This document shows, piece by piece, positions 7,442 through 42,040 of a stretch of 64,000 nt of DNA. The notes beneath the pieces are model-generated. The model was not told where the DNA came from and did no database searches. It saw nothing but the letters and a program-made list of their open reading frames with translations. The translations under genes were made by a program, and so were the position numbers. The stretch's first letter is position 1. The number at the start of each line of letters is the position of its first letter. The DNA is from Rhodothermales bacterium (GTDB lineage: Bacteria; Bacteroidota; Rhodothermia; Rhodothermales; Bin80). The stretch is from NCBI GenBank assembly GCA_965209015.1, contig OZ242367.1, forward strand, positions 566,785-630,784, written 5' to 3'.

Positions 7442-8531
7442 AGTTAAGTCAAAATCCAGTTGGGCATACTGTGCTGTTGGGTGATGTTCATTAACAGGAG
7501 GCGCGAAAGAGATTCAAGGGTGACTGATTAACAAGGACAATTGGATTACGTTGAGTAAGCGTCGTGCTCCAGTCCAGTATAATCAGAACTTTTAATTTCA
7601 ACGTTATGATTGTGCCATGATACCGACCGTTCAAGAACCGAACAGTCAGCAACTGGAACTTGCGTTTATGGCCGTTTTTGAAGAAAAGTTCAAGGTTCTA
7701 CCGCAATTTGTGTGGGATAAGAAGCATTTTATGAACTAGGGGAATCTGTACAAATGTACATGATTTCGTGTTGGAAAGAGGGACATCAAAACAGTTATCA
7801 AGGTTCCCGAGATGTGTCAGTCACATCGTACCATAGCCTGTAATGCGTTATATTCAATACGATTGAATACCATCATAGAGCTACTTACGGCAAAATCCAA
7901 GAACTCAAAATGATTGGGAGAGGATAAAGAATCTTTGCAATTTTCAGAAATGCGATTCTATTCTTCTTCGGAGAATTCAACCTCCAGCCATAATATTCGC
8001 GGTAGAAAGCAAGTTCAATAATGCCCAAGTTAAACTGATTAATATTCAAGAACGAGATATATTTGAGGACAAAGACGATCTACATGTTATGATCAGCCCC
8101 TCAGCCAAATGCAACATGAAGATCTCTCCAGATTTCAGGTTTTTAAATCCCAAAATATTTCATCATTGCAATAAGCCAGTTGTCCGTTGAACACTTGCAC
8201 CCGTCCATGGCGAATCCCATGATCGCTGATGCTATCCTGTACTGACTCGTGCATCCTTCCTATCGCATTGAACTCTCAGGCAAGTCCATGAGAAAATAAC
8301 TCGTTTGAAAAACTTAAGTTTCACACATATTCCTTCCATGAAACAAAAAACGAAATACATAATTTGATCGAAAATGCTCTAAAATAAATGCTTCTGTCCC
8401 AGTAACACCAATCTAAATTGGCTGGCAATTTCATCTAAAATATGAGAGACAAAAATGTGCATAGAAATACATCCAGAGCACTCCAAGTCAAAAAAAGGGC
8501 TGGCTCTGGCAAATACGAATTCATTGAAAAA

Positions 8532-11500
8532 ATGGGGGGGGGTAGCATTTTGTCGTATCGCTCTTTCCTGATCCTTTTCTTGGTATTTCCAAGTTCGTTG
8601 TGGGCACAAGATACCACACCTCCTACGGTTTCCTCTGCGACGGTGGATGAGACCACCTTGGTGGTGAACTTTAATGAGGGCCTTGCTTCTGTCAGCGGCC
8701 TGACCAATTCTGCTTTCACGGTCGAGAAAACGTCCAGTGGAGGATCCGAAGAAGACCAAACGCTCATCGGCACTCCGACTGTCCGTGGGGAAACGGTGCC
8801 CCCCACATTAAGCAGCGCTGTGATCGCACCTGATATGGAAACGGTAAAGCTAATCTACACGGCTCCAACGGAGTCGGGTGCCAAGCTTCGGGATGCGGAG
8901 GGGAGTGATGTGGTGGATTCTATGGATCTGAAAGTGCTCAATATCTGTTCCCGGAGTGAGGTCGTGAGAGACGCGATTTTGGCTCAGATAACCGAGACTG
9001 TGTCTTGTGGTGAGGTCACGAGTAATGATTTAAAAACTATTACTGTTTTAGATCTCAGTCAGAGGGGTATTACTGAACTGAAGTCTGATGATTTCAATGG
9101 ACTTACCGGCTTAGATACCCTCTCTCTTAATAACAACGATCTTACGGATCTACATCGAAATCTGTTTGATGGACTCGAAAGCTTAGAGCAGCTCAATCTT
9201 AATGACAACGCTCTCACGGATCTACCTCGAGGTCTGTTGGATGGCCTCACCAACTTAGTGACTCTCAGACTTAATAACAACGCTCTCACGGATCTACCTC
9301 GAGGTCTGTTTGATGGCCTCCCCAACTTACGTGAAATCTTCCTTAGTAACAACGCTCTCACGGATCTAGATCCAGATCTGTTTGATGGACTCACTGGCTT
9401 ACATCGGCTCTCCCTTAGTAACAACTCTCTCACGCCAGATCCAGATCTGTTTGATGGACTCACCAGCTTATGGCTGCTTCACCTTGGTAACAACGCTCTC
9501 ACGGATCTACCTCGAGATCTATTTGATGGACTCACCAACTTACGTTGGCTCATTCTTAGTCAGAACTCTCTCACGGATCTAGATCCAGATCTGTTTGATG
9601 GACTCACCAGCTTAATTCGGATCTATCTTGAGGAGAACTCGCTCACGAGTCTACACGAAAATCTATTTGATGGACTCACCAACTTACGTGAACTCTACCT
9701 TAAAAAAAATGCTCTCACGGATCTAGATCCAGATCTATTTGATGGACTCAACTTACGTGAACTCTACCTTCATGAAAACGCTCTCACGAGTCTACACGAA
9801 GATCTGTTTAACGGACTCACCAGCTTAGAGCGGCTATGGCTTCATGAAAACGCTCTCACGGATCTACCCCAAGACCTGTTTGATGGACTCACCAGCTTAG
9901 AGTGGCTTCGACTTGAGTTCAACGCTTTCACGGATCTACACGAAGATCTGTTTGATGGACTCACCAGCTTAGGATTCATTGACCTTGACTTCAACGCTCT
10001 CACGGATCTACCTCCAGATCTGTTTGATGGACTCACCAGCTTAGAGAGCCTGACTCTCCAGAAAAACGCTCTCACGGATCTACCTCCAGATCTGTTTGAT
10101 GGACTCACCAGCTTATCGACTCTTCGGCTTGGGATCAACTCTCTCACGAGTCTACACGAAGATCTATTTGATGGACTCACCAACTTATCGGACCTCAATC
10201 TTCATACCAACAATCTCACGGGGCTGCATCCAGATCTGTTTGATGGACTCACCAGCTTAGATGAGCTCTACCTTTCTGGCAATGCTCTCACGGATCTACA
10301 TCCAGATCTGTTTGATGGACTCACCAGCTTAGATGAGCTCGAGCTTAGTTATAACAATCTCACGAGTCTACACCAAGATCTGTTTGATGGACTCACCAAC
10401 TTAGAGTGGCTTCGACTTGAGTGGAACGCTCTCACGGGGCTGCATCCAGATCTGTTTGATGATGTTGAGGCAAATCCATTTAATGTTAGCGTGGAGGGTA
10501 ATCCCCTTACCTGTGTCCCTGACGAAATACTTAATCAGCAGAATGTTATTATTATTCCCTCCAGTCTTCGCGTTACCTGCCCTGCTCCCTCGGTTACGTT
10601 AAGCACGAACCCTGATACCATTGGCGAGGAAGATGAGGCCACCGAGGTCACCGTAACTGGTACATTAAATGTCTATCAGGCTACCGACACGCCAGTGACG
10701 GTCTCTGTGGGACCGGGTACCGCGACCGCAGGGACTGACTTTTCCGTGGTCTCCGATTTTGTAATCAGCATTCCGGCGAACACTCTGTCTGCCACCGGGA
10801 TGTTCACGCTGGCACCTACTTCGGATACTGTGGATGAGCCAGATGAGACCGTGATGATCACAGGAACCAGCACGGTGGAGAATGTGACCGTTATCGGAAC
10901 CCGTCTCACGATCACCGATGACGAAGATGTACCGGCCGTCACGCTGGTACTGGATCCCTCCACGATTGATGAGAATGGAGGGAAGACGACGGTCACGGCT
11001 ACCTTGAACCGGCCTTCCAGTGCAGTGACGACAATCGCCGTGACAGTGCTTCCCGATGCACCCGCCATGGAGTCGGATTATCAACTGAGTGACAATCAAA
11101 TGCTGATCATTGCAGCAGGAGAGACGGAGAGTACGGGGCTCATAACCATCACGGCGGTGGACAACGAAGTAGATGCGCCGGACAAAGCGGTGCAGGTGCA
11201 AGGGAGGTCTACGAATGCGCAGGGCGTGACAGATCCAGAGGATGTGACACTCACGATCATCGACGATGATACGTCAACGGCGGCAGAGGCACCGACCGAG
11301 CTTCCGACCGTGTTTACTCTCTATGGGAACTATCCGAACCCGTTCAATCCGTCAACAAGGATCCAGTTTGATCTTCCCGAGAGGGCGCAGGTGACGGTGC
11401 AGATCTTAGATGTATTGGGACGTAAAGTAATGGAGTACCCTGCCCAAGCGTTTGATGCGGGTGCGAACCAAACTATTGAATTGAATGCGATTCAGCTTGG

Positions 11501-11585
11501 ATCGGGGACCTACCTATATCGAATGATTGCGGTAGGATCGGAGACCAAATATCAGGAGACGGGTCGCATGATACTGATGAAGTAG
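8532..11585 (+). CDS. Secreted LRR protein 1: signal peptide, SwmB-like domain, Cys-capped block of 20 LRRs, 2 Ig/Calx-beta-like domains, T9SS C-terminal domain
   Basis: ORF 8442..11585, probable start ATG 8532; SLWA|QD signal; 24-aa LxxLxLxxNxLTxLxxDLFDGLTx repeats; GNYPNPFNPSTRIQFDL...GRMILMK T9SS CTD. Confidence 0.88.
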   Translation: MGGGSILSYRSFLILFLVFPSSLWAQDTTPPTVSSATVDETTLVVNFNEGLASVSGLTNSAFTVEKTSSGGSEEDQTLIGTPTVRGETVPPTLSSAVIAPDMETVKLIYTAPTESGAKLRDAEGSDVVDSMDLKVLNICSRSEVVRDAILAQITETVSCGEVTSNDLKTITVLDLSQRGITELKSDDFNGLTGLDTLSLNNNDLTDLHRNLFDGLESLEQLNLNDNALTDLPRGLLDGLTNLVTLRLNNNALTDLPRGLFDGLPNLREIFLSNNALTDLDPDLFDGLTGLHRLSLSNNSLTPDPDLFDGLTSLWLLHLGNNALTDLPRDLFDGLTNLRWLILSQNSLTDLDPDLFDGLTSLIRIYLEENSLTSLHENLFDGLTNLRELYLKKNALTDLDPDLFDGLNLRELYLHENALTSLHEDLFNGLTSLERLWLHENALTDLPQDLFDGLTSLEWLRLEFNAFTDLHEDLFDGLTSLGFIDLDFNALTDLPPDLFDGLTSLESLTLQKNALTDLPPDLFDGLTSLSTLRLGINSLTSLHEDLFDGLTNLSDLNLHTNNLTGLHPDLFDGLTSLDELYLSGNALTDLHPDLFDGLTSLDELELSYNNLTSLHQDLFDGLTNLEWLRLEWNALTGLHPDLFDDVEANPFNVSVEGNPLTCVPDEILNQQNVIIIPSSLRVTCPAPSVTLSTNPDTIGEEDEATEVTVTGTLNVYQATDTPVTVSVGPGTATAGTDFSVVSDFVISIPANTLSATGMFTLAPTSDTVDEPDETVMITGTSTVENVTVIGTRLTITDDEDVPAVTLVLDPSTIDENGGKTTVTATLNRPSSAVTTIAVTVLPDAPAMESDYQLSDNQMLIIAAGETESTGLITITAVDNEVDAPDKAVQVQGRSTNAQGVTDPEDVTLTIIDDDTSTAAEAPTELPTVFTLYGNYPNPFNPSTRIQFDLPERAQVTVQILDVLGRKVMEYPAQAFDAGANQTIELNAIQLGSGTYLYRMIAVGSETKYQETGRMILMK

Positions 11586-11620
11586 GGTATCCAGAGTGGC
11601 TCACCTGCTCGGAATCCAAA

Positions 11621-11658
11621 GAAAGCATTCCAATACTCCTTGGTATTGGAGTGCTTTC
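11621..11658 (+). terminator. Conserved 16-bp stem-loop downstream of each T9SS LRR gene (also ~14113-14152 and 18612-18649)
   Basis: GAAAGCATTCCAATAC-TCCTTG-GTATTGGAGTGCTTTC with one G-U pair; no long U tract, so a terminator role is uncertain. Confidence 0.45.
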
Positions 11659-11785
11659 GTATTGAATAAGCGGAAGAGCTTTACGTGTGCTGTGGGAACA
11701 CCTATCTCTATTGAGTATTAAGAGTCTCTAGTCTAGTAAACCAATCTAAATCAGCGGGTAAATTTAATCTTAAAGCAGAGCCAAA

Positions 11786-14077
11786 ATGCGCATAGAAAGA
11801 CATCCAGAGCACTCCAAGTCTAAAACAGGAGGTTTTCTGGCAAGCACGAATTCATTGAAAAAATTGGGGGGGGGGGGTAGCATTTTGTCGTATCGCTTTT
11901 TCCTGATTCTCGTCTTGGTATTTCCAAGCTCGTTGTGGGCACAGGACACCACCCCTCCTACGGTTTCCTCTGCGACGGTGGATGGGACCGCCTTGGTGGT
12001 GAACCTTAATGAGGGCCTTGCTTCTGTTAGCGGCCTGACCAATTCTGTTTTCACGGTCAAGAAAACACCGGACGGAGGATCTGAAACGGAACAGATGCTC
12101 TCGGGCACCCCGACCGTCCGTGGGGAAACGGTGACCCTAACATTAGTCAATCCTGTGATCGCATCCGATAGGGGAACTGTAAAGCTAATCTACACGGCTC
12201 CAACGGAGTCGGGTGCCAAGCTTCGGGATGCGGCGGGGAGTGATGTGGTGGATTCTATGGATCCTAAAGTGCTCAATATCTGTTCCCGGAGTGAGGTCGT
12301 GAGAGACGCGATTTTGGCTCAGATAACCGAGACTGTGTCTTGTGGTGAGGTCACGAGTAATGATTTAAGAACTATTACTGTTTTAGATCTCAGTCAGAGG
12401 GGTATTACTGAACTGAAGTCTGATGATTTCAATGGACTCACCAACTTACTAGATCTTGACCTTAGGACCAACTCTCTCACGGATCTACATCAAGATCTGT
12501 TTGATGGACTCACTAACTTATCGAATCTTCAGCTTGATAACAACTCTCTCACGAGTCTACATCAAGATCTGTTTAAGGAACTCACTAAGTTAGTCTTTCT
12601 TGGCCTTGAGAACAACTCTCTCACAAGTCTACACGAAGAGTTGTTTGATGGACTCACCAGCTTAAATCAACTCTACCTTGATGACAACGCTCTCACGGAT
12701 CTACATCAAGATCTGTTTGAGGAACTCACTGAGTTAGGCGCTCTTGGCCTTAATAACAACTCTCTCACGGATCTACATCAAGATCTGTTTGATGGACTCA
12801 CTAGCTTATCGACTCTTAGGCTTGATAACAACGCTCTCACGAGTCTATACGAAAATCTGTTTGATGAACTCACCAGCTTACGTTTGCTCTTTATTGCTGA
12901 TAACGAGTTCACGGGGCTGCACGAAGAGTTGTTTCATGGACTCACCAGCTTGGAGAGTATAATTCTTTCTAGGAACTCTCTCACGGATCTACATCAAGAT
13001 CTGTTTGATGGACTCACCAGCTTAAATCAACTCTACCTTAATGACAACGCTCTCACGGATCTACACGAAGATCTGTTTGATGGACTTGAAAGCTTAAGTT
13101 TGCTCTCGCTTCATAACAACGCTCTCACGGATCTACCCGAAGATCTGTTTGATGGCCTCACCAAATTAGCGACTCTCAACCTTGATGGCAACGCTCTCAC
13201 GGATCTACCCGAAGATCTGTTTGATGGGCTCACCAGCTTACAATTTCTTATCCTTGCTGGTAACAATCTCACGAGTCTACATCCAGATCTGTTCGATGAT
13301 GTTGAGGCAAATCCATTTACTGTTAGCCTGGAAGAGAATGAACTCACCTGTGTCCCTGCGAAAATACTTAATCAGGAGAATGTCATTATCAATCCCGCCA
13401 GTCTTCGCGTTGCCTGTCCTGATCTTTCGGTTACGTTAAGTGTAAATCCCAGCACCATTGGAGAAGAAGATGAGGCCACCGAAGTCACCGTGACCGCTAC
13501 TCTGGAGGTCTTTCAAACGACTACCTTACCGGTGACGGTCTCTGTGGGATCGGGTACCGCGACCTCAGGAACGGACTTTACTGCGGTCTCCGATTTTACG
13601 ATCAGCATTCCGGCGGATACCCGGTCTAGCACCGGGACATTCACGCTGACACCTACTTCGGATACTGTGGATGAGCCAGATGAGACCGTGATGATCACAG
13701 GAACCAGCACGGTGGAGAATGTAACGGTCACCGGAACCAGTCTTACGATCATCGATGATGATACGTCAACGGCGGCACAGGCACCAACCGAGCTTCCGAC
13801 CGTGTTTACTCTCCATGGGAACTATCCGAACCCGTTCAATCCGTCAACAAGGATCCAGTTTGATCTTCCCGAGAGGGCGCAGGTGACGGTGCAGATCTTA
13901 GATGTATTGGGACGTAAAGTAATGGAGTACCCTGCCCAAGCGTTTGATGCGGGTGCGAACCAAACTATTGAATTGAATGCGATTCAGCTTGGATCGGGGA
14001 CCTACCTATATCAAATGATTGCGGTAGGATCGGAGACCAAATATCAGGAGACGGGTCGCATGATACTGATGAAGTAG
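11786..14077 (+). CDS. Secreted LRR protein 2: SwmB-like domain, 13 LRRs, Ig-like domain, T9SS CTD
   Basis: Same architecture as gene 1; start uncertain (ATG 11786, TTG 11864 or a downstream TTG). Confidence 0.88.
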   Translation: MRIERHPEHSKSKTGGFLASTNSLKKLGGGGSILSYRFFLILVLVFPSSLWAQDTTPPTVSSATVDGTALVVNLNEGLASVSGLTNSVFTVKKTPDGGSETEQMLSGTPTVRGETVTLTLVNPVIASDRGTVKLIYTAPTESGAKLRDAAGSDVVDSMDPKVLNICSRSEVVRDAILAQITETVSCGEVTSNDLRTITVLDLSQRGITELKSDDFNGLTNLLDLDLRTNSLTDLHQDLFDGLTNLSNLQLDNNSLTSLHQDLFKELTKLVFLGLENNSLTSLHEELFDGLTSLNQLYLDDNALTDLHQDLFEELTELGALGLNNNSLTDLHQDLFDGLTSLSTLRLDNNALTSLYENLFDELTSLRLLFIADNEFTGLHEELFHGLTSLESIILSRNSLTDLHQDLFDGLTSLNQLYLNDNALTDLHEDLFDGLESLSLLSLHNNALTDLPEDLFDGLTKLATLNLDGNALTDLPEDLFDGLTSLQFLILAGNNLTSLHPDLFDDVEANPFTVSLEENELTCVPAKILNQENVIINPASLRVACPDLSVTLSVNPSTIGEEDEATEVTVTATLEVFQTTTLPVTVSVGSGTATSGTDFTAVSDFTISIPADTRSSTGTFTLTPTSDTVDEPDETVMITGTSTVENVTVTGTSLTIIDDDTSTAAQAPTELPTVFTLHGNYPNPFNPSTRIQFDLPERAQVTVQILDVLGRKVMEYPAQAFDAGANQTIELNAIQLGSGTYLYQMIAVGSETKYQETGRMILMK

Positions 14078-15078
14078 GGTATCCAGAATGGCTCACCTGC
14101 TCAGAATTCAAAGAACGTATTCCAATACTCCTCTTGGTATGGGAGTGCTTTCGTATTGAATAAGCGGAAGAGCTTTACGTGTGCTGTGGGAACACCTATT
14201 TCTGCGGCAGGTGAGCGTCTCCTGTCTCAGCCACCATGCATGAGAAGGCCGACGTTTGACTCTACCTATTCAGCTTCGCAAAGGTTGAAGGTGTCTGGTA
14301 TCATCTACAGTACAGTCGTCCTACGTTAGGTTGAATGGAAAAAAGGAAGGAGATCATATGTTAATCCTGCAGCTTGCTATCCAAGTTACAGGCTCTGTCT
14401 CTGTCTTCCTGCGCAGCCTTGGGACTGCTTCACGGATCGTTATCTCTCTGCAACACGAATTTATATAAGGTTCATCCGTCAATTTGACTGTGAGATCAAC
14501 TAAACTTTGAATTCTGGGCATCTAGCTTCGCATCCTGAGTTTTCAGCTTCCTGATTTTTGCCCCGAAGCACCAAATTTGCGGTGTACGGTCCCCCTGGAC
14601 ACCCCCAATCCTAACCGGGCCCATCCAAATCCACCAATTGTAAACTGAGTTGAGGCAAAATAACATAGGGATACCTCCCAGAGCAGATTAGCCCCTCAGC
14701 CAAATGCAGGATGGAGCGTTCTCCAGATTTCCAGTCCATGGCGAATCCCACGATCGCCGATGCTATCCTGTACTGACTCGTGCATCCTTCCTATCGCATT
14801 GAACTCTCAGGCAAGTCCATGAGAAAACAACTCGTTTGAAAAACTAAGTTTCACACATATTCCTTCCATGAAACAAAAAACGAAATACATAATTTGATCG
14901 AAAATGCTCTAAAATAAATGCTTCTGTCCCAGTAACACCAATCTAAATTGGCTGGCAATTTCATATAAAATATGAGAGACAAAAATGTGCATAGAAATAC
15001 ATCCAGAGCACTCCAAGTCAAAAACAGGGGTGGCTCTGGCAAATACGAATTCATTGGAAAAATGGGGGGGGTAGCATT

Positions 15079-18000
15079 TTGTCGTATCGCTCTTTCCTGA
15101 TCCTTTTCTTGGTATTTCCAAGTTCGTTGTGGGCACAAGATACCACACCTCCTACGGTTTCCTCTGCGACGGTGGATGAGACCACCTTGGTGGTGAACTT
15201 TAATGAGGGCCTTGCTTCTGTCAGCGGCCTGACCAATTCTGCTTTCACGGTCAAGAAAACGTCCAGTGGAGGATCCGAAGAAGACCAAACGCTCATCGGC
15301 ACTCCGACTGTCCGTGGGGAAACGGTGCCCCCCACATTAAGCAGCGCTGTGATCGCACCTGATATGGAAACGGTAAAGGTAAGCTACACGGCTCCAACGG
15401 AGTCGGGTGCCAAGCTTCGGGATGCTGAGGGGAGTGATGTGGTGGATTCTATGGATCTGAAAGTGCTCAATATCTGTTCCCGGAGTGAGGTCGTGAGAGA
15501 CGCGATTTTGGCTCAGATAACCGAGACTGTGTCTTGTGGTGAGGTTACGAGTGATGATTTAAGAACTATTACTGTTTTAGATCTCAGTCAGAGGGGTATT
15601 ACTGAACTGAAGTCTGATGATTTCAATGGACTCACCGGCTTACAAACTCTTGACCTTGGGACCAACTCTCTCACGAGTCTACCTCAAGATCTGTTTGATG
15701 GACTCACCAACTTAAGAAACCTCAACCTTGATGGTAACTCTCTCACGGATCTACCTCAAGATCTGTTTGATGGACTCACTAGCTTATCGGCTCTTTGGCT
15801 TGATAACAACTCTCTCACGGATCTACATCAAGATCTGTTTGAGGAACTCGAAAATTTAAATATCTTATGGCTTAATAACAACGCTCTCACGGATCTACAC
15901 GAAGATCTGTTTGATGGACTCACCAACTTAAGAAACCTCAACCTTGATGGTAACGCTCTCACGGATCTACATCAAGATCTGTTTGATGGACTCACCAACT
16001 TAGGATCCATTGCCCTTCAGTTCAACGCTCTCACGGATCTACCTCGAGATCTGTTTGATGGACTCACCAGCCTACAGAACCTCTGGCTTAATAACAATTC
16101 TCTCACGGATCTATACGAAGATCTATTTGATGGACTCACCGGCTTAAGTTCGCTCTTTATTACTGATAACGAGTTCACGGGGCTGCACGAAGAGTTGTTT
16201 GATGGACTCACCAACTTAGAGCGGATAAATTTTTCTAGGAACGATCTCACGGATCTACACGAAGAGTTGTTTGATGGACTCACCAACTTAGAGGTTCTCA
16301 GACTTGATGACAACTCTCTCACGAGTCTACACGAAGATCTGTTTGATGGACTCACCAACTTAGAGCGGATAAGTCTTTCTAGGAACTCTCTCACGGATCT
16401 ACACGAAGAGTTGTTTGATGGACTCACCAACTTACGAGAGATTGACCTTGGGCGGAACTCTCTCACGAGTCTACATCAAGATCTGTTTAATGGACTCACC
16501 AGCTTAGAGCGGATAATTCTTTCTAGGAATTCTCTCACGGATCTACCCGAAGATCTGTTTGATGGATTCATCAGCTTAAGTTTGCTCTCGCTTCATAACA
16601 ACGCTCTCACGGATCTACCCGAAGATCTGTTTGATGGACTCATCAGCTTAAGTTTGCTCTCGCTTCAGAACAACGCTCTCATGGGTCTACATCCAAACCT
16701 GTTTGATGATGTTGAGGCAAATCCATTTAATGTTAGCGTGGAGGGTAATCCCCTTACCTGTGTCCCTTCCAGAATACTTAATCAGGAGAATGTTATTATC
16801 ATTCCATCCAGTCTTCTCGTTACCTGCCCTAATCCCTCGGTTACCTCTGCAACGGTGGATGGGATCACCGTGGAGGTGAATTTTAATGAGGACCTTGCTT
16901 CTGTCAGCGGCCTAACCAATTCTGCTTTCACGGTCAAGAAAACACCGGACGGAGGATCTGAAACGGAACAAATGCTCACCGGCACCCCGACCGTCAGTGG
17001 GAAAACGGTGACCCTCACATTAAGCAATCCGGTGATTGCATCTGATATGGGAACGGTAAAGGTAAGCTACATGGCTCCAACGGAGCCGGATGCCAAGCTT
17101 CGGGATGCAGAGGGGCATGCTGTGGTGAATTTTACAGATCTAAAAGTGCTCAATTTGAGGGGCGGAATCTGTCCTCGGACCGAGGTCGTGAGAGACGCGA
17201 TTTTGAATCAAATAACTGGGACTGAGTTTTGTTATGAGGTCACGAGTGATGATTTAGGCAATGTTAGGTCCTTAAATACTCTTAATAATAAGGGTATTAC
17301 TGAACTGAAGTCTGGTGATTTTAATGGACTCATCAATTTACTAATTCTTAACCTTGGTACCAACTCTTTCACAGGTCTACCCGAAGATCTGTTTGATGGA
17401 CTCACTAAGTTAACCTTACTTAACCTTGCTGGTAACAATCTCACGAGTCTACCCGAAGATCTGTTTGCTGGACTCACCAGCTTAAGTCGGCTCCTTATTT
17501 CTAATAACGAACTCACGGATCTACACGAAGACCTGTTTGATGGCCTCACCAGCTTAGCTCGGCTTACACTTCATGACAACGCTCTCACGGGTCTACCCGA
17601 AGATCTGTTTGATGGCCTCAACAACTTAGCGACTCTCAACCTTGATGGCAACGCTCTCACGGGTCTACCCGAAAATCTGTTTGATGCCTCAACAACTTAT
17701 GGGCTCACCGAAGATCTGTTTGATGGGCTCACCAGCTTACAATTTCTTATCCTTGCCGGTAACAATCTCACGAGTCTACATCCAGATCTGTTTGATGATG
17801 TTGAGGCAAATCCATTTACTGTTAGCCTGGAAGAGAATGAACTCACCTGTGTCCCGGCCAAAATACTTAATCAGGAGAATGTCATTATCAATCCCGCCAG
17901 TCTTCGCGTTGCCTGTCCTGATCTTTCGGTTACGTTAAGTGTAAATCCCAGCACCATTGGAGAAGAAGATGAGGCCACCGAAGTCACCGTGACCGCTACT

Positions 18001-18576
18001 CTGGAGGTCTCTCAAACGACTGCCTTACCGGTGACGGTCTCTGTGGGATCGGGTACCGCGACCTCAGGAACGGACTTTACGGCGGTCTCCGATTTTACGA
18101 TCAGCATTCCGGCGAATACCCTGTCTAGCACCGGGACATTCACGCTGACACCTACCTCGGATACTGTGGATGAGCCAGATGAGACCGTGATGATCACAGG
18201 AACCAGCACGGTGAAGAATGTAACGGTCACCGGAACCAGTCTTACGATCATCGATGATGATACGTCAACGGCGGCACAGGCACCGACCGAGCTTCCGACC
18301 GTGTTTACTCTCCATGGGAACTATCCGAACCCGTTCAATCCGTCAACAAGGATCCAGTTTGATCTTCCCGAGAGGGCGCAGGTGACGGTGCAGGTCTTAG
18401 ATGTGTTGGGACGTAAAGTAATGGAGTACCCTGCCCAAGCGTTTGATGCGGGTGCGAACCAAACTATTGAATTGAATGCGATTCAGCTTGGATCAGGGAC
18501 CTACCTATATCGAATGATTGCGGTGGGATCGGAGACCAAATATCAGGAGACGGGTCGCATGATACTGATGAAGTAG
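15079..18576 (+). CDS. Secreted LRR protein 3: two SwmB+LRR blocks (16 and ~7 LRRs), Ig-like domain, T9SS CTD
   Basis: Paralogue of genes 1/2; the homologous ATG at 15062 is out of frame because the tract is G8, so the ORF opens at TTG 15079. Confidence 0.85.
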   Translation: MSYRSFLILFLVFPSSLWAQDTTPPTVSSATVDETTLVVNFNEGLASVSGLTNSAFTVKKTSSGGSEEDQTLIGTPTVRGETVPPTLSSAVIAPDMETVKVSYTAPTESGAKLRDAEGSDVVDSMDLKVLNICSRSEVVRDAILAQITETVSCGEVTSDDLRTITVLDLSQRGITELKSDDFNGLTGLQTLDLGTNSLTSLPQDLFDGLTNLRNLNLDGNSLTDLPQDLFDGLTSLSALWLDNNSLTDLHQDLFEELENLNILWLNNNALTDLHEDLFDGLTNLRNLNLDGNALTDLHQDLFDGLTNLGSIALQFNALTDLPRDLFDGLTSLQNLWLNNNSLTDLYEDLFDGLTGLSSLFITDNEFTGLHEELFDGLTNLERINFSRNDLTDLHEELFDGLTNLEVLRLDDNSLTSLHEDLFDGLTNLERISLSRNSLTDLHEELFDGLTNLREIDLGRNSLTSLHQDLFNGLTSLERIILSRNSLTDLPEDLFDGFISLSLLSLHNNALTDLPEDLFDGLISLSLLSLQNNALMGLHPNLFDDVEANPFNVSVEGNPLTCVPSRILNQENVIIIPSSLLVTCPNPSVTSATVDGITVEVNFNEDLASVSGLTNSAFTVKKTPDGGSETEQMLTGTPTVSGKTVTLTLSNPVIASDMGTVKVSYMAPTEPDAKLRDAEGHAVVNFTDLKVLNLRGGICPRTEVVRDAILNQITGTEFCYEVTSDDLGNVRSLNTLNNKGITELKSGDFNGLINLLILNLGTNSFTGLPEDLFDGLTKLTLLNLAGNNLTSLPEDLFAGLTSLSRLLISNNELTDLHEDLFDGLTSLARLTLHDNALTGLPEDLFDGLNNLATLNLDGNALTGLPENLFDASTTYGLTEDLFDGLTSLQFLILAGNNLTSLHPDLFDDVEANPFTVSLEENELTCVPAKILNQENVIINPASLRVACPDLSVTLSVNPSTIGEEDEATEVTVTATLEVSQTTALPVTVSVGSGTATSGTDFTAVSDFTISIPANTLSSTGTFTLTPTSDTVDEPDETVMITGTSTVKNVTVTGTSLTIIDDDTSTAAQAPTELPTVFTLHGNYPNPFNPSTRIQFDLPERAQVTVQVLDVLGRKVMEYPAQAFDAGANQTIELNAIQLGSGTYLYRMIAVGSETKYQETGRMILMK

Positions 18577-18854
18577 GGTATCCAGAGTGGCTCACCTGCT
18601 CGGAATCCAAAGAAAGCATTCCAATACTCCTTGGTATGGGAGTGCTTTCGTATTGAATAAGCGGAAGAGCTTTACGTGTGCTGTGGGAGCACCTATTTCT
18701 ATTGAGTATTAAGAGTCTCTGGTCTACTAACACCAATCTAAATCAGCGGGCAAATTTAATCTTATAGCAGAGTCAAAATGCGCATAGAAAGACATCCAGA
18801 GCACTCCAAGTCTAAAACAGGAGGTTTTCTGGCAAGCACGAATTCATTGAAAAA

Positions 18855-20243
18855 ATGGGGGGGGGCATTTTGTCGTATCGCTCTTTCCTGATACTCGTCT
18901 TGGTATTTCCAAGTTCATTGTGGGCACAAGACACCACACCTCCTACTGCTTCCTCGGCAACGGTGGATGGGACCGCCTTGGTGGTGAACTTTAATGAGGA
19001 ACTCGCTTCTGTCAGCGGTCTGACCAATTCTGCCTTCACGGTTACGAAAACGTACAGCGGAGGATCCGAGGAAGCCCAAGTGCTCAGCGGCATTCCTACC
19101 GTTAGTGGGGAAACGGTAACACGCACATTAAGCAGTCCGGTGATCGCATCTGATATGGGAACGATAAAGCTAATCTACACGGCTCCAACGGAGCCGGGTG
19201 CCAAGCTTCGGGATGCAGAGGGGAGTGATGTGGTGGATTCTATGGATCCTAAAGTGCTCAATATCTGTTCCCGGAGTGAGGTCGTGAGAGACGCGATTTT
19301 GGCTCAGATAACCGAGACTGTGTCTTGTGGTGAGGTCACGAGTGATGATTTAAGTGAAATTACTATCTTAGATCTTGGAGGAAGAGATATTACTGAACTG
19401 AAGTCTGATGATTTCAGTGGACTCACCAACTTACAATATCTCTATCTTAATAATAACTCCCTCACGGATCTACCTCAAGATCTGTTTGATGGACTCACTC
19501 AGTTACTCTTTCTTGAACTTCATAACAACGCTCTCACGGATCTACATCAAGATCTGTTTGATGGACTAGAAAGCTTAATTTTGCTCTTCCTTCAGAACAA
19601 CGCTCTCACGAGTCTACATCAAGATCTGTTTGAGGAACTCACTAGCTTATCGAATCTTAACCTTCAGAACAACGCTCTCACGGATCTACCTCAAGATCTG
19701 TTTGATGGCCTCACCAACTTACGTTTGCTCTTTCTTAGTCAGAATGCTCTCACGGATCTACATCAAGATCTGTTTGATGGACCCACCAGCTTGGAGAGTA
19801 TAAATCTTGCTGGGAACTCTCTCACGGATCTACATCAAGATCTGTTTGATGGACTCACCAGCTTACAGAGCCTCTGGCTTAATAACAATTCTCTCACGGA
19901 TCTACACGAAGATCTATTTGATGGACTCACCAGCTTAAGTTTGCTCTCGCTTCAGAACAACGCTCTCATGGGTCTCCATCCAGACCTGTTTGATGATGTT
20001 CAGGCAAATCCATTTAATGTTAGCTTGGAGGGTAATCTTACCTGTGTCCCTGCCGAAATATTGAATCAAGAGGGTATCAGTATTTCACCTTCCACTCTTA
20101 TGGCTTGCCCTGCTCCTACGGTTACCTCTGCAACGGTGGATGGGACCACCTTAGTGGTGAACTTTGATGAGGGCCTTGCTTCTGTTAGCGGCCTGACCAA
20201 TTCTGCCTTCACGGTCAAGAAAACACCGGAGCGGAGGATCTGA
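18855..20243 (+). CDS. N-terminal fragment of LRR gene 4 (signal peptide, SwmB-like domain, 9 LRRs)
   Basis: MGGGILSYRSFLILVLVFPSSLWAQD signal; LRR block; ends at an indel in the second SwmB domain. Confidence 0.7.
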   Translation: MGGGILSYRSFLILVLVFPSSLWAQDTTPPTASSATVDGTALVVNFNEELASVSGLTNSAFTVTKTYSGGSEEAQVLSGIPTVSGETVTRTLSSPVIASDMGTIKLIYTAPTEPGAKLRDAEGSDVVDSMDPKVLNICSRSEVVRDAILAQITETVSCGEVTSDDLSEITILDLGGRDITELKSDDFSGLTNLQYLYLNNNSLTDLPQDLFDGLTQLLFLELHNNALTDLHQDLFDGLESLILLFLQNNALTSLHQDLFEELTSLSNLNLQNNALTDLPQDLFDGLTNLRLLFLSQNALTDLHQDLFDGPTSLESINLAGNSLTDLHQDLFDGLTSLQSLWLNNNSLTDLHEDLFDGLTSLSLLSLQNNALMGLHPDLFDDVQANPFNVSLEGNLTCVPAEILNQEGISISPSTLMACPAPTVTSATVDGTTLVVNFDEGLASVSGLTNSAFTVKKTPERRI

Positions 20244-23200
20244 AACGGAAGCCCAGAGTGCTCTCGCGGCACCCCGACTGTCAGTGGGGAAGATGGTGAC
20301 CCTCACATTAAGCAATCCTGTGATCGCATCTGATAGGGGAACGGTAAAGGTAAGCTACACGGCTCCAGCGGAGTCGGGTGCCAAGCTTCGGGATGCAGAG
20401 GGGAATAATGTGTTGGATTTTATGGATCTAAAAGTGCTCAATTTGAGGGGCGGAATCTGTTCTCGGACCGAGGCCGTGAGAGACGCGATTTTGGGTCAGA
20501 TAACTAGGACTGAGTTTTGTAATGAGGTCACGAGTGATGATTTAAGAAATATTGATGTTTTAGATCTCAAGCGGAGGGGTATTACTGAACTGAAGTCTGA
20601 TGATTTCAGTGGACTCACCAACTTAGGTAGAATCGTGCTTCTTGACAACGAGCTCACGAGTCTACATCCAGACCTGTTCGATGGACTCACTAGCTTAGTG
20701 ACTCTTCGGCTTGAGAACAACTCCCTCACGGATCTACCTCGAGATCTGTTTGACGGACTTACCAGCTTACGAACTCTTAGACTTGATGGCAACGCTCTTA
20801 CGGGTCTACATCAAGATCTGTTTGATGGACTCGAAAGCTTATCAGATCTTTGGCTTGATAACAACGCTCTCACGGATCTACATCAAGATCTGTTTGATGG
20901 ACTCACCAGCTTACGGTACCTCTTGCTTAATAAAAATTCTCTCACGGATCTACACGAAGATCTGTTTGACGGACTCACCAACTTAGAGAACCTGGTTCTC
21001 CAGAACAACGCTCTCACGAGTCTACACGAAAATCTGTTTGAGGAACTCAACAGCTTACGTTTGCTCTATATTTCTGATAACGAGCTCACGGGGCTGCACG
21101 AAAATCTGTTTGATGGACTCACCAACTTATCAGATCTTCGGCTTGATAACAACTCTCTCACGAGTCTGCACGAAGAGTTGTTTGATGGACTCACTAACTT
21201 AGAGACCCTCTATCTTAGGAACAACGCTCTCACGAGTCTACACGAAAATCTGTTTGAGGAACTCACCAGCTTACGTTGGCTCTTTATTTCTGATAACGAG
21301 CTCACGGGGCTGCACGAAGAGTTGTTTGATGGACTCACCAACTTATATCGGATAAGTCTTTCTAGGAACTCTCTCACGGATCTACATCGAAGATCTATTT
21401 GATGGACTCACCAACTTAGATCATTCTCTATCTTCAGGAACAACGCTCTCACGAGATCTACACGAAAATCTGTTTGATGAACTCATCAGCTTACGTTGGC
21501 TCTTTATTTCTGACAACGCTCTCACGGATCTACACGAAGATCTGTTTGATGGCCTCATGAACTTAGCGATCAACTCGAACTTAATAACAACGAGCTCACG
21601 AGTCTACATCCAGAGCTGTTTGATGATGTTGATGAGGCAAATCCATTTACTGTTAGCTTGGATGGTAATCCCCTTACCTGTGTCCCTGCCAAAATACTTG
21701 ATCAGGAGAATGTTATTATCATTCCCTCCAGTCTTCGCGTTACCTGCCCTAATCCCTCGGTTACGTTAAGTGTAAATCCCAGCACCATTGGAGAAGAGGA
21801 TGAGGCCACTGAAATAACGGTGACCGGTACATTAAATGTCTATCAGTCAACCGATACGCCGGTGACGGTCTCTGTGGGATCGGGTACCGCGACTGCAGGA
21901 ACGGACTTTACTGTGGTTTCCGATTTTACAATCAGCATTCCGGCGAATAGCCTGTCTGCCACCGGGACGTTCACGCTGACGCCCACTTCGGATACTGTGG
22001 ACGAGCCACATGAGGCCGTGATGATCACAGGAACCAGCACGGTGGAGAATGTAACGGTCACCGGAACCAGTCTCACGATCATGGACAATGATGATGCGCC
22101 GATCGTGACCCTGAATCTTTCAAGTTCCTCTATCGGCGAAAATGGAGGGAGTACCACCGTAACGGCAACCCTTAATCATCCCTCCAGCGAGGAGACGACG
22201 ATCACGATCTCGGTAGACCCAACCTTACCAGCCACCGAGTCGGATTATACGCTAAGTGGGACCACGCTCACGATTGCAGCGGGCGCAATCGAGAGTACGG
22301 AGATCGTGACAATCACGGCAGAGGTTAATGATGTGGTTGCCCCCGACAAGATCGTAACCGTGCGAGGATCGGCCTCAAATAATCAAGGGATCCGTGGTCC
22401 GACAGATGTGGAACTGACCATCACCGAAGCCACACCTACCCCTCCTACGGTTACCTCTGCAACGGTGGATGGGACCACCTTGGAGGTGAATTTTAATGAG
22501 GGCCTTGCTTCTGTCAGCGGCCTAACCAATTCTGCTTTCACGGTCAAGAAAATACCCAGCGGAGGATCCGAGGAAGCCCAAGTGCTCAGCGGCACGCCAA
22601 CCGTCAGTGGAAAGAAGGTGACCCTCACATTAAGCAATCCTGTGATCGAATCTGATATGGGAACGGTAAAGGTAAGCTACACGGCTCCAGCGGAGTCGGA
22701 TGCCAAGCTTCGGGATGCAGAGGGGCATGCCGTGGTGAATTTTACAGATCTAAAAGTGCTCAATTTGAGGGGCGGAATCTGTTCTCGGACCGACGCCGTG
22801 AGAGAGGCGATTTTGGCTCAGATAACCAGGACTAATCTTTGTAATGAGGTCACGGGTGATGATTTAAGTGAAATTACTACCTTAGATCTTGGAGGAGAAG
22901 ATATTACTGAACTGAAGTCTGGTGATTTTGATGGACTCACCAGCTTAGATTGGCTTATACTTGATAACAACGCTCTCACGGATCTACCTCGAGATCTGTT
23001 TGATGGACTCATCAGCTTAAGGCGGCTTGAACTTCAGAACAACTCTCTCACTAGTCTACATCAAGATCTGTTTGAGGGACCCATTAATTTAGGCTCTCTT
23101 GCTCTTAGTGGCAACTCTCTCACGGATCTACATCAAAATCTGTTTGAGGGACTCAGTAATTTAAGCACTCTTGGCCTTGCGCAAAACTCTCTCACGAGTC

Positions 23201-26200
23201 TGCACGAAGATCTGTTTAATGGACTCAACAACTTAAATGAACTCTACCTTAATAGCAACGATCTCACGAGTCTACACGAAGCTCTGTTTGAGGGACTCAA
23301 CAACTTAGATCTGATAACTCTTGGTTCGAACTCTCTCACGGATCTACACGAAGATCTGTTTAATGGACTCATCAACTTAGAGGATCTCTACCTTGGTAGC
23401 AACGAGCTCACGAGTCTACACGAAGAGCTATTTGATGGACTCACCAGCTTACGGGTGCTCAGCCTTGGTGACAACGATCTCACAGATCTACACGAAGAGC
23501 TATTTGATGAACTCACCAGCTTACGGGTGCTCAGCCTTGGTGAAAACGATCTCACGGATCTACACGAAGAGTTGTTTGATGGACTCACCAACTTACGAGA
23601 GATTTACCTTGGGAGAAACTCTCTCACGAGTCTACACCAAGATCTGTTTGATGGACTCGGAGACTTACAGAACCTCTGGCTTTTTAACAATGCTCTCACG
23701 GATCTACATCCAGATCTGTTTGATGGACTCACCAGCTTAGATGATCTCTACCTTTCTGACAATGCTCTCACGGATCTACACGAAGATCTGTTTGATGGAC
23801 TCGGAGACTTACAGAACCTCTGGCTTTTTAACAATGCTCTCACGGATCTACATCCAGATCTGTTTGAGGGACTCACCAGCTTAGATGATCTCCACCTTTC
23901 TTCCAATGCTCTCACGGATCTACACGAAGATCTGTTTGAGGAACTCACTAACTTATCGGATCTTAACCTTCGGAACAACGCTCTCACGGATCTACCTCAA
24001 GATCTGTTTGATGGCCTCAACAACTTAGATGAACTCGTGCTTAGAGACAACAAGCTCACGAGTCTACATCCAGACCTGTTTGATGATGTTGATGAGGCAA
24101 ATTCATTTACTGTTAGCTTGGAGCGTAATCCCCTTACCTGTGTCCCTGCCAAAATACTTGATCAGCAGAATATCACTATCAATCCTTCCAGTCTTCGCGT
24201 TACCTGCCCTGATCCCTCAATTACGTTAAGCACCAATCCTCAAACCATTGGGGAGGAAGATGAGGCCACCGAGGTCACCGTGACCGGTACATTAAATGTC
24301 TATCAGTCAACCGATACGCCGGTGACGGTCTCTGTGGGATCGGGCACCGCGACTGCAGGGACTGACTTTACTGTGGTTTCCGATTTTACAATCAGCATTC
24401 CGGCGAATAGCCTGTCTGCCACCGGGACATTCACGCTGACGCCCACTTCGGATACTGTGGACGAGCCGGATGAGACCGTGATGATCACCGGAACCAGCAC
24501 GGTGGAGAATGTAACGGTCACCGGAACCAGTCTCACGATCACCGATGATGACGACGCCCCGACGATCACGCTGACGCTGTCGGACAACCCCATCTCCGAA
24601 GATGGCGGGAGTACCACCGTAACCGCGACGCTCAGTCATGCCTCCACCGAGGAGACGACGATCACGATTTCCACCGTACCGGATTTGCCCGCGACCGCGG
24701 ACGATTACACGCTGAGTACCAATGCGACGCTCACGATTGCGGCAAACCAGACGACCAGTACGGGGGTGGTCACCATCACCGCCGTAGACAATGCCGTCGA
24801 TGAGCCCAACAAGACGGTGCAGGTGCAAGGCACAGCGACGAACGCGCAGGGGATCACCGATCCCGCGGAGGTCACACTCACGATCACCGATGACGAGGGG
24901 GCCCCGACGATCACGCTGACGCTGTCGGACAACCCCATCTCCGAAGATGGCGGGAGTACCACCGTAACCGCGACGCTCAGTCATGCCTCCACCGAGGAGA
25001 CGACGATCACGATTTCCACCGTACCGGATTTGCCCGCGACCGCGGACGATTACACGCTGAGTACCAATGCGACGCTCACGATTGCGGCAAACCAGACGAC
25101 CAGTACGGGGGTGGTCACCATCACCGCCGTAGACAATGCCGTCGATGAGCCCAACAAGACGGTGCAGGTGCAAGGCACAGCGACGAACGCGCAGGGGATC
25201 ACCGATCCCGCGGAGGTCACACTCACGATCACCGATGACGAGGGGGCCCCGACGATCACGCTGACGCTGTCGGACAACCCCATCTCCGAAGATGGCGGGA
25301 GTACCACCGTAACCGCGACGCTCAGTCATGCCTCCACCGAGGAGACGACGATCACGATTTCCACCGTACCGGATTTGCCCGCGACCGCGGACGATTACAC
25401 GCTGAGTACCAATGCGACGCTCACGATTGCGGCAAACCAGACGACCAGTACGGGGGTGGTCACCATCACCGCCGTAGACAATGCCGTCGATGAGCCCAAC
25501 AAGACGGTGCAGGTGCAAGGCACAGCGACGAACGCGCAGGGGATCACCGATCCCGCGGAGGTCACACTCACGATCACCGATGACGAGGGGGCCCCGACGA
25601 TCACGCTGACGCTGTCGGACAACCCCATCTCCGAAAGATGGCGGGAGTACCACCGTAACCGCGACGCTCAGTCATGCCTCCACCGAGGAGACGACGATCA
25701 CGATTTCCACCGTACCGGATTTGCCCGCGACCGCGGACGATTACACGCTGAGTACCAATGCGACGCTCACGATTGCGGCAAACCAGACGACCAGTACGGG
25801 GGTGGTCACCATCACCGCCGTAGACAATGCCGTCGATGAGCCCAACAAGACGGTGCAGGTGCAAGGCACAGCGACGAACGCGCAGGGGATCACCGATCCC
25901 GCGGAGGTCACACTCACGATCACCGATGACGAGGGGGCCCCGACGATCACGCTGACGCTGTCGGACAACCCCATCTCCGAAGATGGCGGGAGTACCACCG
26001 TAACCGCGACGCTCAGTCATGCCTCCACCGAGGAGACGACGATCACGATTTCCACCGTACCGGATTTGCCCGCGACCGCGGACGATTACACGCTGAGTAC
26101 CAATGCGACGCTCACGATTGCGGCAAACCAGACGACCAGTACGGGGGTGGTCACCATCACCGCCGTAGACAATGCCGTCGATGAGCCCAACAAGACGGTG

Positions 26201-40325: not shown

Positions 40326-40650
40326 TCACTTTATCACTCGCAGCAACCGAAACCTCTGATATCTCGTGGATATTAAGAGACCAAAATGCATGATAATCGA
40401 GCCTCTTTCAAAATTCTTTATTTTCACCTTTTGTTCCCGCTGAATTGCGGCTGAAGCTGGTTCAATTTCGTCGGATTACGCGAATCATTGGTATGGGTTC
40501 GCCGTTTTGTGGAGTCGACCGGTGCTTTGCCTGCACGGAGGTCTCTGTTTGGTGAATTTCGTCCACGATCCGTGTAGATTTCACACCCCTCCCACGGCAT
40601 CTGTGGTTCAGAGCGCCCAAATTCTGTTATGCAGGGGTTGGATGGCCGGT

Positions 40651-41553
40651 TTACTGCACCATCCGCAGCATTTGGTCCACCGTGAGTACCACCACACTGA
40701 ACATCAAATGACAAAGGACTTTCTCGTGCCCACGGACTCGGATATTGCGTCCACCGAACTCATCTTTGAGCCGCCCAAAGGCCCGCTCCACGGTGGAACG
40801 CTCCCGGTAGCGAACCCGCTCCGCAGGAATGAATCCGGCCGTACGTTGCGCCTTTTGCTCGCGACGATCCGCCGCTTTTTTCTTGCGCGGATTCGGATCA
40901 ATGATCGGTACACGCCCCGAGGCGCTCCGATGTGCGACAATCTTCTTCGCGTCATAGGCGCTGTCCATGAGATCGTAACAGTTGTCCACCCGCTGCTGCG
41001 TCAAGTGCGCCAAGGGAAGCGCGGCCTGACTATCATGCAACGAGGCAGAGGTCACCAAACAGCTGATCGGCCCCCCTCCGTCCGCCGTATCCATGTGTAG
41101 CTTATAGCCCGTCCATCGTTGCGTATGCCCCTTCGCGTTCCGCTTGCAGCCCACCCTTGATTAAAATTTATTTCTGGTAATCCTATGTTTTGGGTTGCGT
41201 ATGCCCCTTCGCGTTCCGCTTGCAGCCCACCGTACAATCCTTCGGTAATACGTCCAACATCTCGCCTAACTCCATCTTCAACTGCTGCTCCAAGCGACGA
41301 GGCAGCTTGGGACGCTCCTCCCCCTTCTTCGGACGCCCCCGCTTGCGTGGCTTCCTCGGTGCGCAGGCGGGCGTCCCACCGAACGAAGCCGGGGACGAGG
41401 CAGATGATCCTCCACACAGACCAACTCAAATAACAACAACAACTTCCTCAATCGTTTGGGCAACGCTCCATAGTTCTGCTCCACACATGGAAACAACTCC
41501 TGTTGGCAGGAAATATAAAAACCGCGTATCTTCTTGGTAGGGGACATGGGATT
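40651..41553 (-). pseudogene. Transposase pseudogene
   Basis: Fragments 40651..41154 and 41278..41577 are near-identical to the copy 1 transposase. Confidence 0.85.
41118..41231. repeat. 38-bp perfect direct duplication flanking a 38-bp unique AT-rich insert (single repeat-spacer-repeat unit)
   Basis: GTTGCGTATGCCCCTTCGCGTTCCGCTTGCAGCCCACC at 41118-41155 and 41194-41231; present only once in the intact IS at ~6580-6617. Confidence 0.9.
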
Positions 41554-42040
41554 CTCCGGGGTTTGTTGGATTTGCAATACTCCTAAAAATACAAAATTCG
41601 GAGATCCCTGTCCCTTCGTTTATGACCCAAAAAAACGATACCTCCCAGAGCAGATCAGCCCCTAACATTCTTAGTATCCAGATCCATCAATCAGCAAAAT
41701 CTCTCAAAAAATCATCCAATTGAGAAATTTTGAAAGAGGCTCAATCGTATCCCCGATATTCTGCACTTAAGCTTTGTGGTAGGTCTATTAAACTCAATAT
41801 CTTTGGCAGAAATTCGTTAGTCGGGAATGTGCATTCAAATTCACGGAAATGTTCTGAATTACTCATACCAAAAAGAGATATGTCAGATGCGTTTGTGTTA
41901 TTTCTGGAATCATCATTGGGAAAAATATATGTCATGGTTGAACAGTGCTATGGTGAAAAGTTGATTATTTTGGGAATTATATACCTAAGTACCCCACCTA
42001 GTTAGAGTTGCACTGCGAATCTTGCCAGTTCGATTTTTTT

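Follow-up and report, generated by a model that had tools for sequence, protein, structure and literature searches.

We analyzed a 64,000-bp stretch of the genome of a Rhodothermales bacterium (GenBank assembly GCA_965209015.1, contig OZ242367.1, positions 566,785 to 630,784 of the forward strand), referred to in its entirety as the window, in which a copy of an insertion sequence (IS) carries a short direct duplication surrounding an insert of spacer size. A first-pass annotation had proposed that this structure, hereafter the focal unit, arose through natural off-target integration of a CRISPR spacer. The IS copy in question lies on the reverse strand at window positions 40399-41743, encodes a DDE_Tnp_1 transposase and aligns by BLAST in three pieces (40399-41155, 41194-41354 and 41357-41743) at 94-97% identity to a reference copy of the same IS; the DDE_Tnp_1 domain is matched by its open reading frame (ORF) at 40651-41154. 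Comparison by BLAST with the reference also locates the junction of a separate internal deletion at 41354-41357, where the 315 bp corresponding to reference positions 6742-7056 are gone; at this junction, the contigs of public sequencing runs carry on with the reference IS sequence. The claim that the insertion disrupts the transposase stands insofar as the unit lies inside a transposase copy, but that copy is also decayed in other respects, lacking the 315 bp and being about 94.5% identical overall to the reference. Judged from its sequence, the focal IS is a decayed copy, a description that implies no relative order of the unit and the deletion. The full-length reference IS (approximately 1587 bp) was identified from BLAST and domain matches on the reverse strand at 5859-7445, with a transposase spread over two overlapping frames that match DUF772 and DDE_Tnp_1. 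Within this nominally intact element, the transposase (6113-7247, reverse strand) is split into overlapping DUF772 (227 aa) and DDE (184 aa) frames, a sign of programmed frameshifting or else of a broken gene.

The focal unit consists of a 38-mer (GTTGCG...CCCACC) present on the forward strand at 41118-41155 and 41194-41231, with no mismatch between the two copies, and of the 38 bp that separate them (41156-41193). The bases immediately outside the two copies differ on the left (c/g) and on the right (c/g), so that the exact duplication measures 38 bp. When up to three mismatches were allowed, the 38-mer was matched three times in the window, and none of 100 shuffles gave any match. The insert, which measures 39 bp if one flanking base is counted, has 10 G+C among its 38 bases (26%), a degree of AT-richness reached by just 1% of genomic 38-mers. 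It occurs a single time in the 3.21-Mb, single-contig genome (labelled G000, contig C1, with the first copy of the focal unit at coordinate 607902), and elsewhere in that genome it finds only chance matches of 12-14 nt. The perfect duplication around a unique, AT-rich insert had been described correctly in the first-pass annotation. The same annotation had raised the end of a transposon as a competing source of the insert, an origin at odds with a unique sequence that lacks terminal inverted repeats: with no inverted repeats at its ends, no second genomic copy and a duplication of 38 bp, the insert has the profile of neither a transposon nor a miniature inverted-repeat transposable element (MITE). 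A search of Rfam with window positions 41050-41300 returned no match at E ≤ 10, and no CRISPR direct-repeat family (CRISPR-DR) among them, and folding of the duplicated 38-mer revealed no notable structure (z = -1.3 and -1.2). The duplicated 38-mer is hence neither a known repeat family nor structured.

The form of the site that preceded the insertion can be read directly from other copies of the IS. The reference IS contains the 38-mer once, at 6580-6617 (forward strand), as an exact match to both copies in the focal unit; the exact 38-mer likewise occurs once at genome position 1260882, and the site is present once in four diverged IS copies of the same genome. Among the 18 other congeneric genomes searched, 13 carry copies of the IS, and none of the IS matches in these genomes covers the focal insert. 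In every pair of flanking matches checked, comprising relatives G002, G003, G010 and G012 and the genome's own copies, the two flanks overlap by 38 bp in the subject, as is characteristic of the empty form. Contigs assembled from three public runs, belonging to two studies, join position 41117 to 41194, skipping 76 bp with an ambiguity of 38 letters. The net gain of the focal copy relative to other IS copies is thus 76 bp. The proposed empty allele within the window is therefore confirmed and extends to IS copies in related genomes, and none of the pairs examined, in this genome or in its relatives, carries a spacer of its own.

The genome contains three cas1 genes, each of them next to cas2 and an array, and we assigned type labels to the three systems on the basis of NCBIfam matches. 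Array A1 (genome 976788-981729) comprises 58 repeats of 37 bp and spacers of 37-44 bp with a mode of 40 bp (39 bp in 11/56 and 38 bp in 7/56), and it is accompanied by Cas2, Cas1, a CARF protein and Cmr1-6/Cas10, which identify a type III-B system. The adaptation module of this locus has neither Cas4 nor a reverse transcriptase; its Cas1 (348 aa) covers positions 1-326 of the 327 in TIGR00287, and Cas1 and Cas2 adjoin the array. The same III-B repeat is found in 90 copies in the sister species G002. Array A2 (genome 2893752-2896492) has 38 repeats of 36 bp with spacers of 35-40 bp (mode 37; 40 bp in 2/37), and its neighbours Cas2, a Cas4/Cas1 fusion, Csb2, Csb1, Csx17 and Cas3 correspond to type I-G. 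Array A3 (genome 2917895-2921609), with 57 repeats of 28 bp and spacers of 35-38 bp, adjoins an I-D-like locus encoding Cas6, Csc2 and Cas3'. None of the 148 spacers in these arrays matches elsewhere in the genome. A fourth candidate array (genome 2222908-2223389) was rejected as a plain tandem repeat, and many matches with a 72-bp period were likewise discarded as tandem repeat families. These 72-bp-period families occupy window positions ~9200-24000 (G000:C1:575989-590795) and some 20 other loci, with a concentration in and near the window; they probably encode 24-residue protein repeats, and mimic CRISPR periodicity in naive scans.

The search for resident arrays and adaptation genes recommended in the first-pass annotation thus yields three candidate integrases, and the period of the III-B array accounts for exactly 76 bp (37+39). 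This bears out the suggestion that the net gain could be parsed as a repeat of 36-37 bp and a spacer of 39-40 bp, either as 37+39 (III-B) or as 36+40 (I-G). To compare the three modules, the likelihood of a 76-bp unit was computed from the frequencies of spacer lengths in each array and from the chance of flanking bases extending the duplication, giving 0.055 for III-B, 0.0057 for I-G and 0 for the I-D-like system. On this evidence, and on that of the further units described below, we assign a probability of about 0.88 to the interpretation of the focal unit as a scar left when a resident Cas1-Cas2, most likely the Cas4-less module at the III-B (Cmr) locus, integrated a spacer off target. Integration of a 40-bp spacer by the I-G Cas4/Cas1-Cas2 on its 36-bp ruler would yield the same 76 bp, spacers of 40 bp do occur in the I-G array, and two other units in the genome, with a period of 73 bp, fit I-G geometry. 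Such an origin demands two chance bases in addition to a rare spacer length, making it about ten times less likely than III-B; moreover, III-B geometry is seen in 10 of the 14 units identified, and the 37-bp targets of those ten resemble the III-B repeat (z = 5.4) and not the I-G repeat (z = 0.14). We therefore consider I-G integration at the focal site unlikely.

The focal unit is one of a set. We scanned the whole genome outside the three arrays for exact, non-tandem direct repeats of at least 24 bp. Scanning periods of 40-120 bp returned 14 matches, of which 13 had periods of 61-80 bp and the fourteenth was part of a 72-bp tandem family; extending the range to 30-400 bp gave 20 two-copy repeats, the same range of 61-80 bp holding 13 of them and the other seven being scattered between 126 and 397 bp. 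The background rate predicts 0.4 repeats at periods of 61-80 bp, against the 13 observed (P = 7e-16). A mismatch-tolerant scan added one further unit, for a total of 14, all with periods of 61-81 bp. Six candidates with three or more copies were evaluated as mini-arrays and rejected as repeats of 63-, 72- or 73-bp period. By geometry, ten of the 14 belong with III-B and two with I-G, and the last two present 28-bp duplications; all 14 inserts differ in sequence. Relative to the array spacers of each system, this amounts to 10 ectopic units versus 57 spacers for III-B, 2 versus 37 for I-G and 2 versus 56 for the I-D-like system.

Empty sites could be demonstrated, in paralogous copies or in related genomes, for seven of the 14 units. 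Among the ten units with III-B geometry, which show apparent duplications of 37-39 bp and periods of 76-81 bp, these are, besides the focal unit with its empty IS copies, the units whose first copies lie at genome positions 3134580 (empty in 5/5 relatives searched, with a flank overlap of exactly 37 bp in G002 at 99% identity), 423515 (empty in G002, flank overlap of 37 bp), 2566052 (empty in three paralogues within the genome) and, as a weaker case, 300714 (empty in copies of a dispersed repeat at 88-95% identity). Comparison with paralogues resolved one unit as 37+44 bp with one substitution and one 1-nt deletion. The I-G-geometry unit at 2762151-2762261 (period 73) is empty in G002 with a flank overlap of 38 bp, and the 28+37 unit at 309671-309763, which has the geometry of A3, is empty in G017 and G004 with a flank overlap of 28 bp. 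The latter splits a reverse transcriptase gene, the two halves of which match RVT_1 positions 1-107 and 100-205 and which is uninterrupted in G017 and G004. Six units yield no readable empty site in the genomes searched (relatives being represented by one genome per species), where their flanks are unconserved or non-collinear: the III-B-geometry units at 1070469, 1139475, 2108312, 2486186 and 2622340 and the 28+33 unit at 137795. The remaining unit, of I-G geometry and also with a period of 73 bp, lies at 869647-869758 and has a protospacer within the genome itself. Four units show a point or indel difference between their two copies, which indicates that they have aged in vivo.

Two dispersed repeat families were noted in addition. 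An element of ~158 bp, which looks MITE-like, occupies G000:C1:2485786-2485945 and at least 15 other places of the genome; its copies reach 99% identity in G000 and G002, and are ~77-83% identical in the genus's other species. In the second family, one of whose copies received the unit at 300714, the ends carry short arrays built from a 23-bp tandem unit (G000:C1:1383297, 1733511 and related sites). On a chromosomal scale, the origin maps near 188 kb and the terminus near 1.75 Mb by cumulative GC skew, and a post-hoc inspection found no ectopic unit between 1.14 and 2.11 Mb, around the terminus. This unit-free region could reflect gene dosage, supercoiling at the time of integration, or chance.

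The lengths of the duplications provide a quantitative test of the ruler. The ten III-B-type units show apparent duplications of 37 bp (six units), 38 bp (three) and 39 bp (one), where a fixed stagger of 37 bp with chance extension (by one extra base in an expected 28% of events) predicts 5.6, 2.8 and 1.05. The duplication lengths fit the fixed-37 model, and the 38 bp of the focal unit are therefore best read as 37+1. To assess target choice, each of the ten 37-bp targets was oriented for best fit and compared with the III-B repeat, using random genomic sites subjected to the same procedure as the null. Identity to the repeat was found at 150 of the 370 target positions, against a null expectation of 112.6 ± 6.9 (z = 5.4) that reached the observed value in 1 of 3000 draws; the corresponding score was z = 0.14 for the I-G repeat and z = 0.23 for the I-D-like repeat. 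The repeat positions best kept are G1, T2, C5 and A6 at the leader-distal end (6-7/10 each) and T32 and G33 (8/10 each), although the control covers the total score and not single positions. The focal target begins with GTTGC where the repeat has GTTTC, and thus matches G1, T2 and C5.

For two units the source of the insert was identified. The insert at 869647 finds a 37-nt match at genome 2846297-2846333, inside a chromosomal ORF, and the same 37 nt of this gene are matched by orthologues in three relatives; the match resolves what appears to be a 39+34 unit into 36+37, the modal geometry of A2. The 40-nt insert at 3134580 is matched at 100% over 41 nt in the gene for a type III restriction-modification (R-M) Mod methylase of the sister species G002, and this source DNA is absent from G000. 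The source locus in G002 (G002:C1:431000-446000) encodes an OLD-family ATPase/TOPRIM and a UvrD helicase, a Gabija-like pair, followed by the type III R-M Mod and Res, and constitutes a defence island.

The self-derived insert at 869647 also speaks for an explanation dispensing with Cas proteins, namely a microhomology-mediated switch of replication template in which some 38 bp were copied from elsewhere before replication resumed upstream: the insert is templated from the same chromosome and its junctions share 2 and 1 bases of identity, in the manner of microhomology. Template switching leaves the quantised lengths unexplained: each of the 14 units has a period within the ranges of the resident arrays, and a narrow interval of the range scanned holds 13 of the 20 non-tandem repeats. 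Furthermore, a fixed 37-bp model describes how long the duplications are, the resemblance of the targets is specific to the III-B repeat and the III-B-type junctions display no excess of microhomology, which together render this explanation highly improbable. Returning to integration by Cas1-Cas2, the chemistry of this complex predicts a duplication of repeat length around the insert, and the predicted architecture is reproduced quantitatively for three integrases in one cell, which points to Cas1-Cas2 as the agent. For the focal unit, an integrase loaded with a prespacer of ~39 bp would have attacked the two strands of the IS 37 bp apart, the normal spacing of the two transesterifications on its own 37-bp repeat, and repair of the resulting gaps would have left a copy of the 37-bp target at either side of the insert. 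An additional base matching by chance would then account for a structure that appears as 38/38. A weak resemblance to the end of the repeat (GTTGC versus GTTTC) probably guided the choice of site.

Several observations weigh against this interpretation. The exact duplication measures 38 and not 37 bp, and one chance base must be assumed. The parallel drawn in the first-pass annotation between the GTTGC start and CRISPR repeats holds for the GTT.C start shared with the III-B repeat, but not for the target as a whole, which matches at 14/37 positions and is devoid of the T32-G33 pair common to 8/10 targets; the repeat-likeness of the focal target rests on the group and is by itself not convincing. 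The I-G repeat measures 36 bp, but the I-G-type units at 869647 and 2762151 appear duplicated over 39 and 38 bp, so that spacer ends and target flanks share 3 and 2 bases, respectively. Chance does not readily produce that many, a hint of microhomology, which the Cas4/Cas1 module may use. The focal insert is more AT-rich than all but 1/56 of the III-B spacers and all but 2/37 of the I-G spacers, and no protospacer was found for it: scans for the exact 38-mer in viral, metagenome and genome contigs gave no match, a blastn search against 50,697 phage records returned matches at chance level only (best E = 0.3), and no match with up to three mismatches was found in 23 other genomes of the genus. 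The foreign, possibly phage, origin originally put forward for the insert is accordingly not borne out. Four other ectopic spacers and two canonical III-B spacers had no exact match in the viral contigs either; as canonical spacers are also matchless, the viral collection apparently lacks the mobile elements of this organism, and the blank result for the focal insert says little. Finally, we infer the dependence on Cas1-Cas2 from geometry, and by similar reasoning the module responsible and the non-functional state of the unit.

Read support for the assembly at the focal site was sought in four public runs, which provided no coverage of the bin spanning the insert (41151-41191) or of the unique flank from 41766. 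None of the public runs listed contained more than 0.42 of the sampled words, no RNA data set was among them, and this strain itself is probably absent from the four runs. These data bear on a third explanation, an artefact of assembly or sequencing such as a chimeric read or an adapter remnant in a multi-copy IS, given that the site lies within a repeated element, a weak spot of assemblies, and that the runs examined leave it uncovered. An artefact is hardly credible in light of the 13 other units that share the same architecture in unique DNA, four of them with copies that have diverged in vivo, and of the real protospacers of two units, and it would not reproduce the geometry of the resident arrays. 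The original reading of the locus as a natural off-target integration is strengthened by these same 13 units, whose geometries match the resident arrays, together with the empty sites of 7/14 units and the two protospacers.

With regard to function, the focal unit is, from its sequence, most likely a non-functional scar and not a working mini-array. The notion of a neo-CRISPR, understood as a growing array, finds no counterpart here: every one of the 14 units has two copies and a single spacer, where a functional array would have three or more repeats, a leader, further spacer uptake and processed transcripts. The ectopic units are probably inert, given that each has a single spacer, offers Cas6 no cognate repeat, lacks an Rfam match and shows no notable fold.

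Taken together, we lean towards the view that this genome keeps a fossil record of stray adaptation, composed of at least 14 ectopic single-spacer integrations by three integrases, ten of them by the Cas4-less III-B module (approximately one per six array spacers). Under this proposal, a weak GT..CA...TG signature and a fixed 37-bp ruler would suffice for integration, and stray events would represent a real source of insertional mutation and raw material for new arrays, with self spacers tolerated in the ectopic units (1/14) as opposed to the arrays (0/148). If this is correct, off-target adaptation mutates genes, as illustrated by the split reverse transcriptase and transposase genes and by other units just upstream of large genes, and the disrupted genes would constitute genome damage inflicted by adaptive immunity. 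Most work on off-target integration has used integrases that were overexpressed or purified, and the natural frequency, sites and cost of such events are poorly documented. The natural dataset assembled here, with 14 events by three integrases, half of them with an ancestral empty site and two with their source DNA, makes it possible to test whether each Cas1-Cas2 has its repeat-length ruler built in, what positions of the repeat are read without a leader and whether fidelity is lower in type III modules devoid of Cas4. For annotation purposes, such units should not be labelled as CRISPR arrays, and they explain frameshifts that would otherwise be puzzling.

The features of these units invite comparison with several known systems. 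Like insertions of transposable elements, the inserts are flanked by direct duplications of their target; unlike them, the focal insert is only 38 bp long, has no terminal inverted repeats and has no other copy, and the 14 inserts are all different. To our knowledge, a duplication of 37-38 bp far exceeds those of known IS elements or casposons. The closest precedent is the neo-CRISPR work in Escherichia coli by Nivala, Shipman and Church (Nat Microbiol, 2018), in which Cas1-Cas2 was reportedly overexpressed in a laboratory strain that was supplied with oligonucleotides. As in that work, a spacer-length fragment is found here at a non-CRISPR site with a duplicated target of repeat length. In contrast to it, the events described here are natural, number approximately 14 in one genome, involve III-B, I-G and I-D-like modules with staggers of 37, 36 and 28 bp, and never comprise more than one spacer. 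The accounts given in PMC7054753, PMC11788318 and bioRxiv 10.1101/148544 describe the type I-E experiments (Nivala 2018) as off-target integration elsewhere in the genome, and bioRxiv 10.1101/148544 refers to only circumstantial evidence in two other species and regards the frequency of neo-CRISPR arrays in bacteria as unclear.

Isolated or orphan arrays (Shmakov et al. 2020), for which three origins have been proposed, off-target acquisition among them, according to the summary in PMC13142298, resemble the present units in being repeat-spacer units located far from cas genes in natural genomes. Orphan arrays are detected by array finders, whereas the units described here have two copies and one spacer; their "repeats", unlike those of orphan arrays, consist of ordinary host DNA, be it an IS, a reverse transcriptase gene or an intergenic stretch, and empty sites are shown for 7/14 units. 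Regarding the enzymes involved, PMC13769266 (Microlife 2026) reports that the III-A Cas1-Cas2 of Thermotoga profunda alone shows limited fidelity and substantial off-target integration in vitro, with HU needed for fidelity, and PMC6698737 that off-target sites of Pyrococcus furiosus Cas1-Cas2 reveal the repeat elements recognised by the integrase. Similarly to the P. furiosus sites, the ectopic targets resemble the repeat at G1, T2, C5, A6, T32 and G33. Both studies employed plasmid assays with purified proteins, in contrast with the in vivo genomic record analyzed here, and by analogy the excess of III-B among ectopic units appears in line with the in vitro promiscuity reported for type III-A Cas1-Cas2 in PMC13769266. 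Our literature search, which did not extend to Nivala 2018, Shmakov 2020 or to supplements, where such cases may be listed, found no wild genome reported to carry many ectopic units. This kind of event is known; its number in one wild genome is notable, and makes the CRISPR-Cas systems of this bacterium an unusually rich instance of it.

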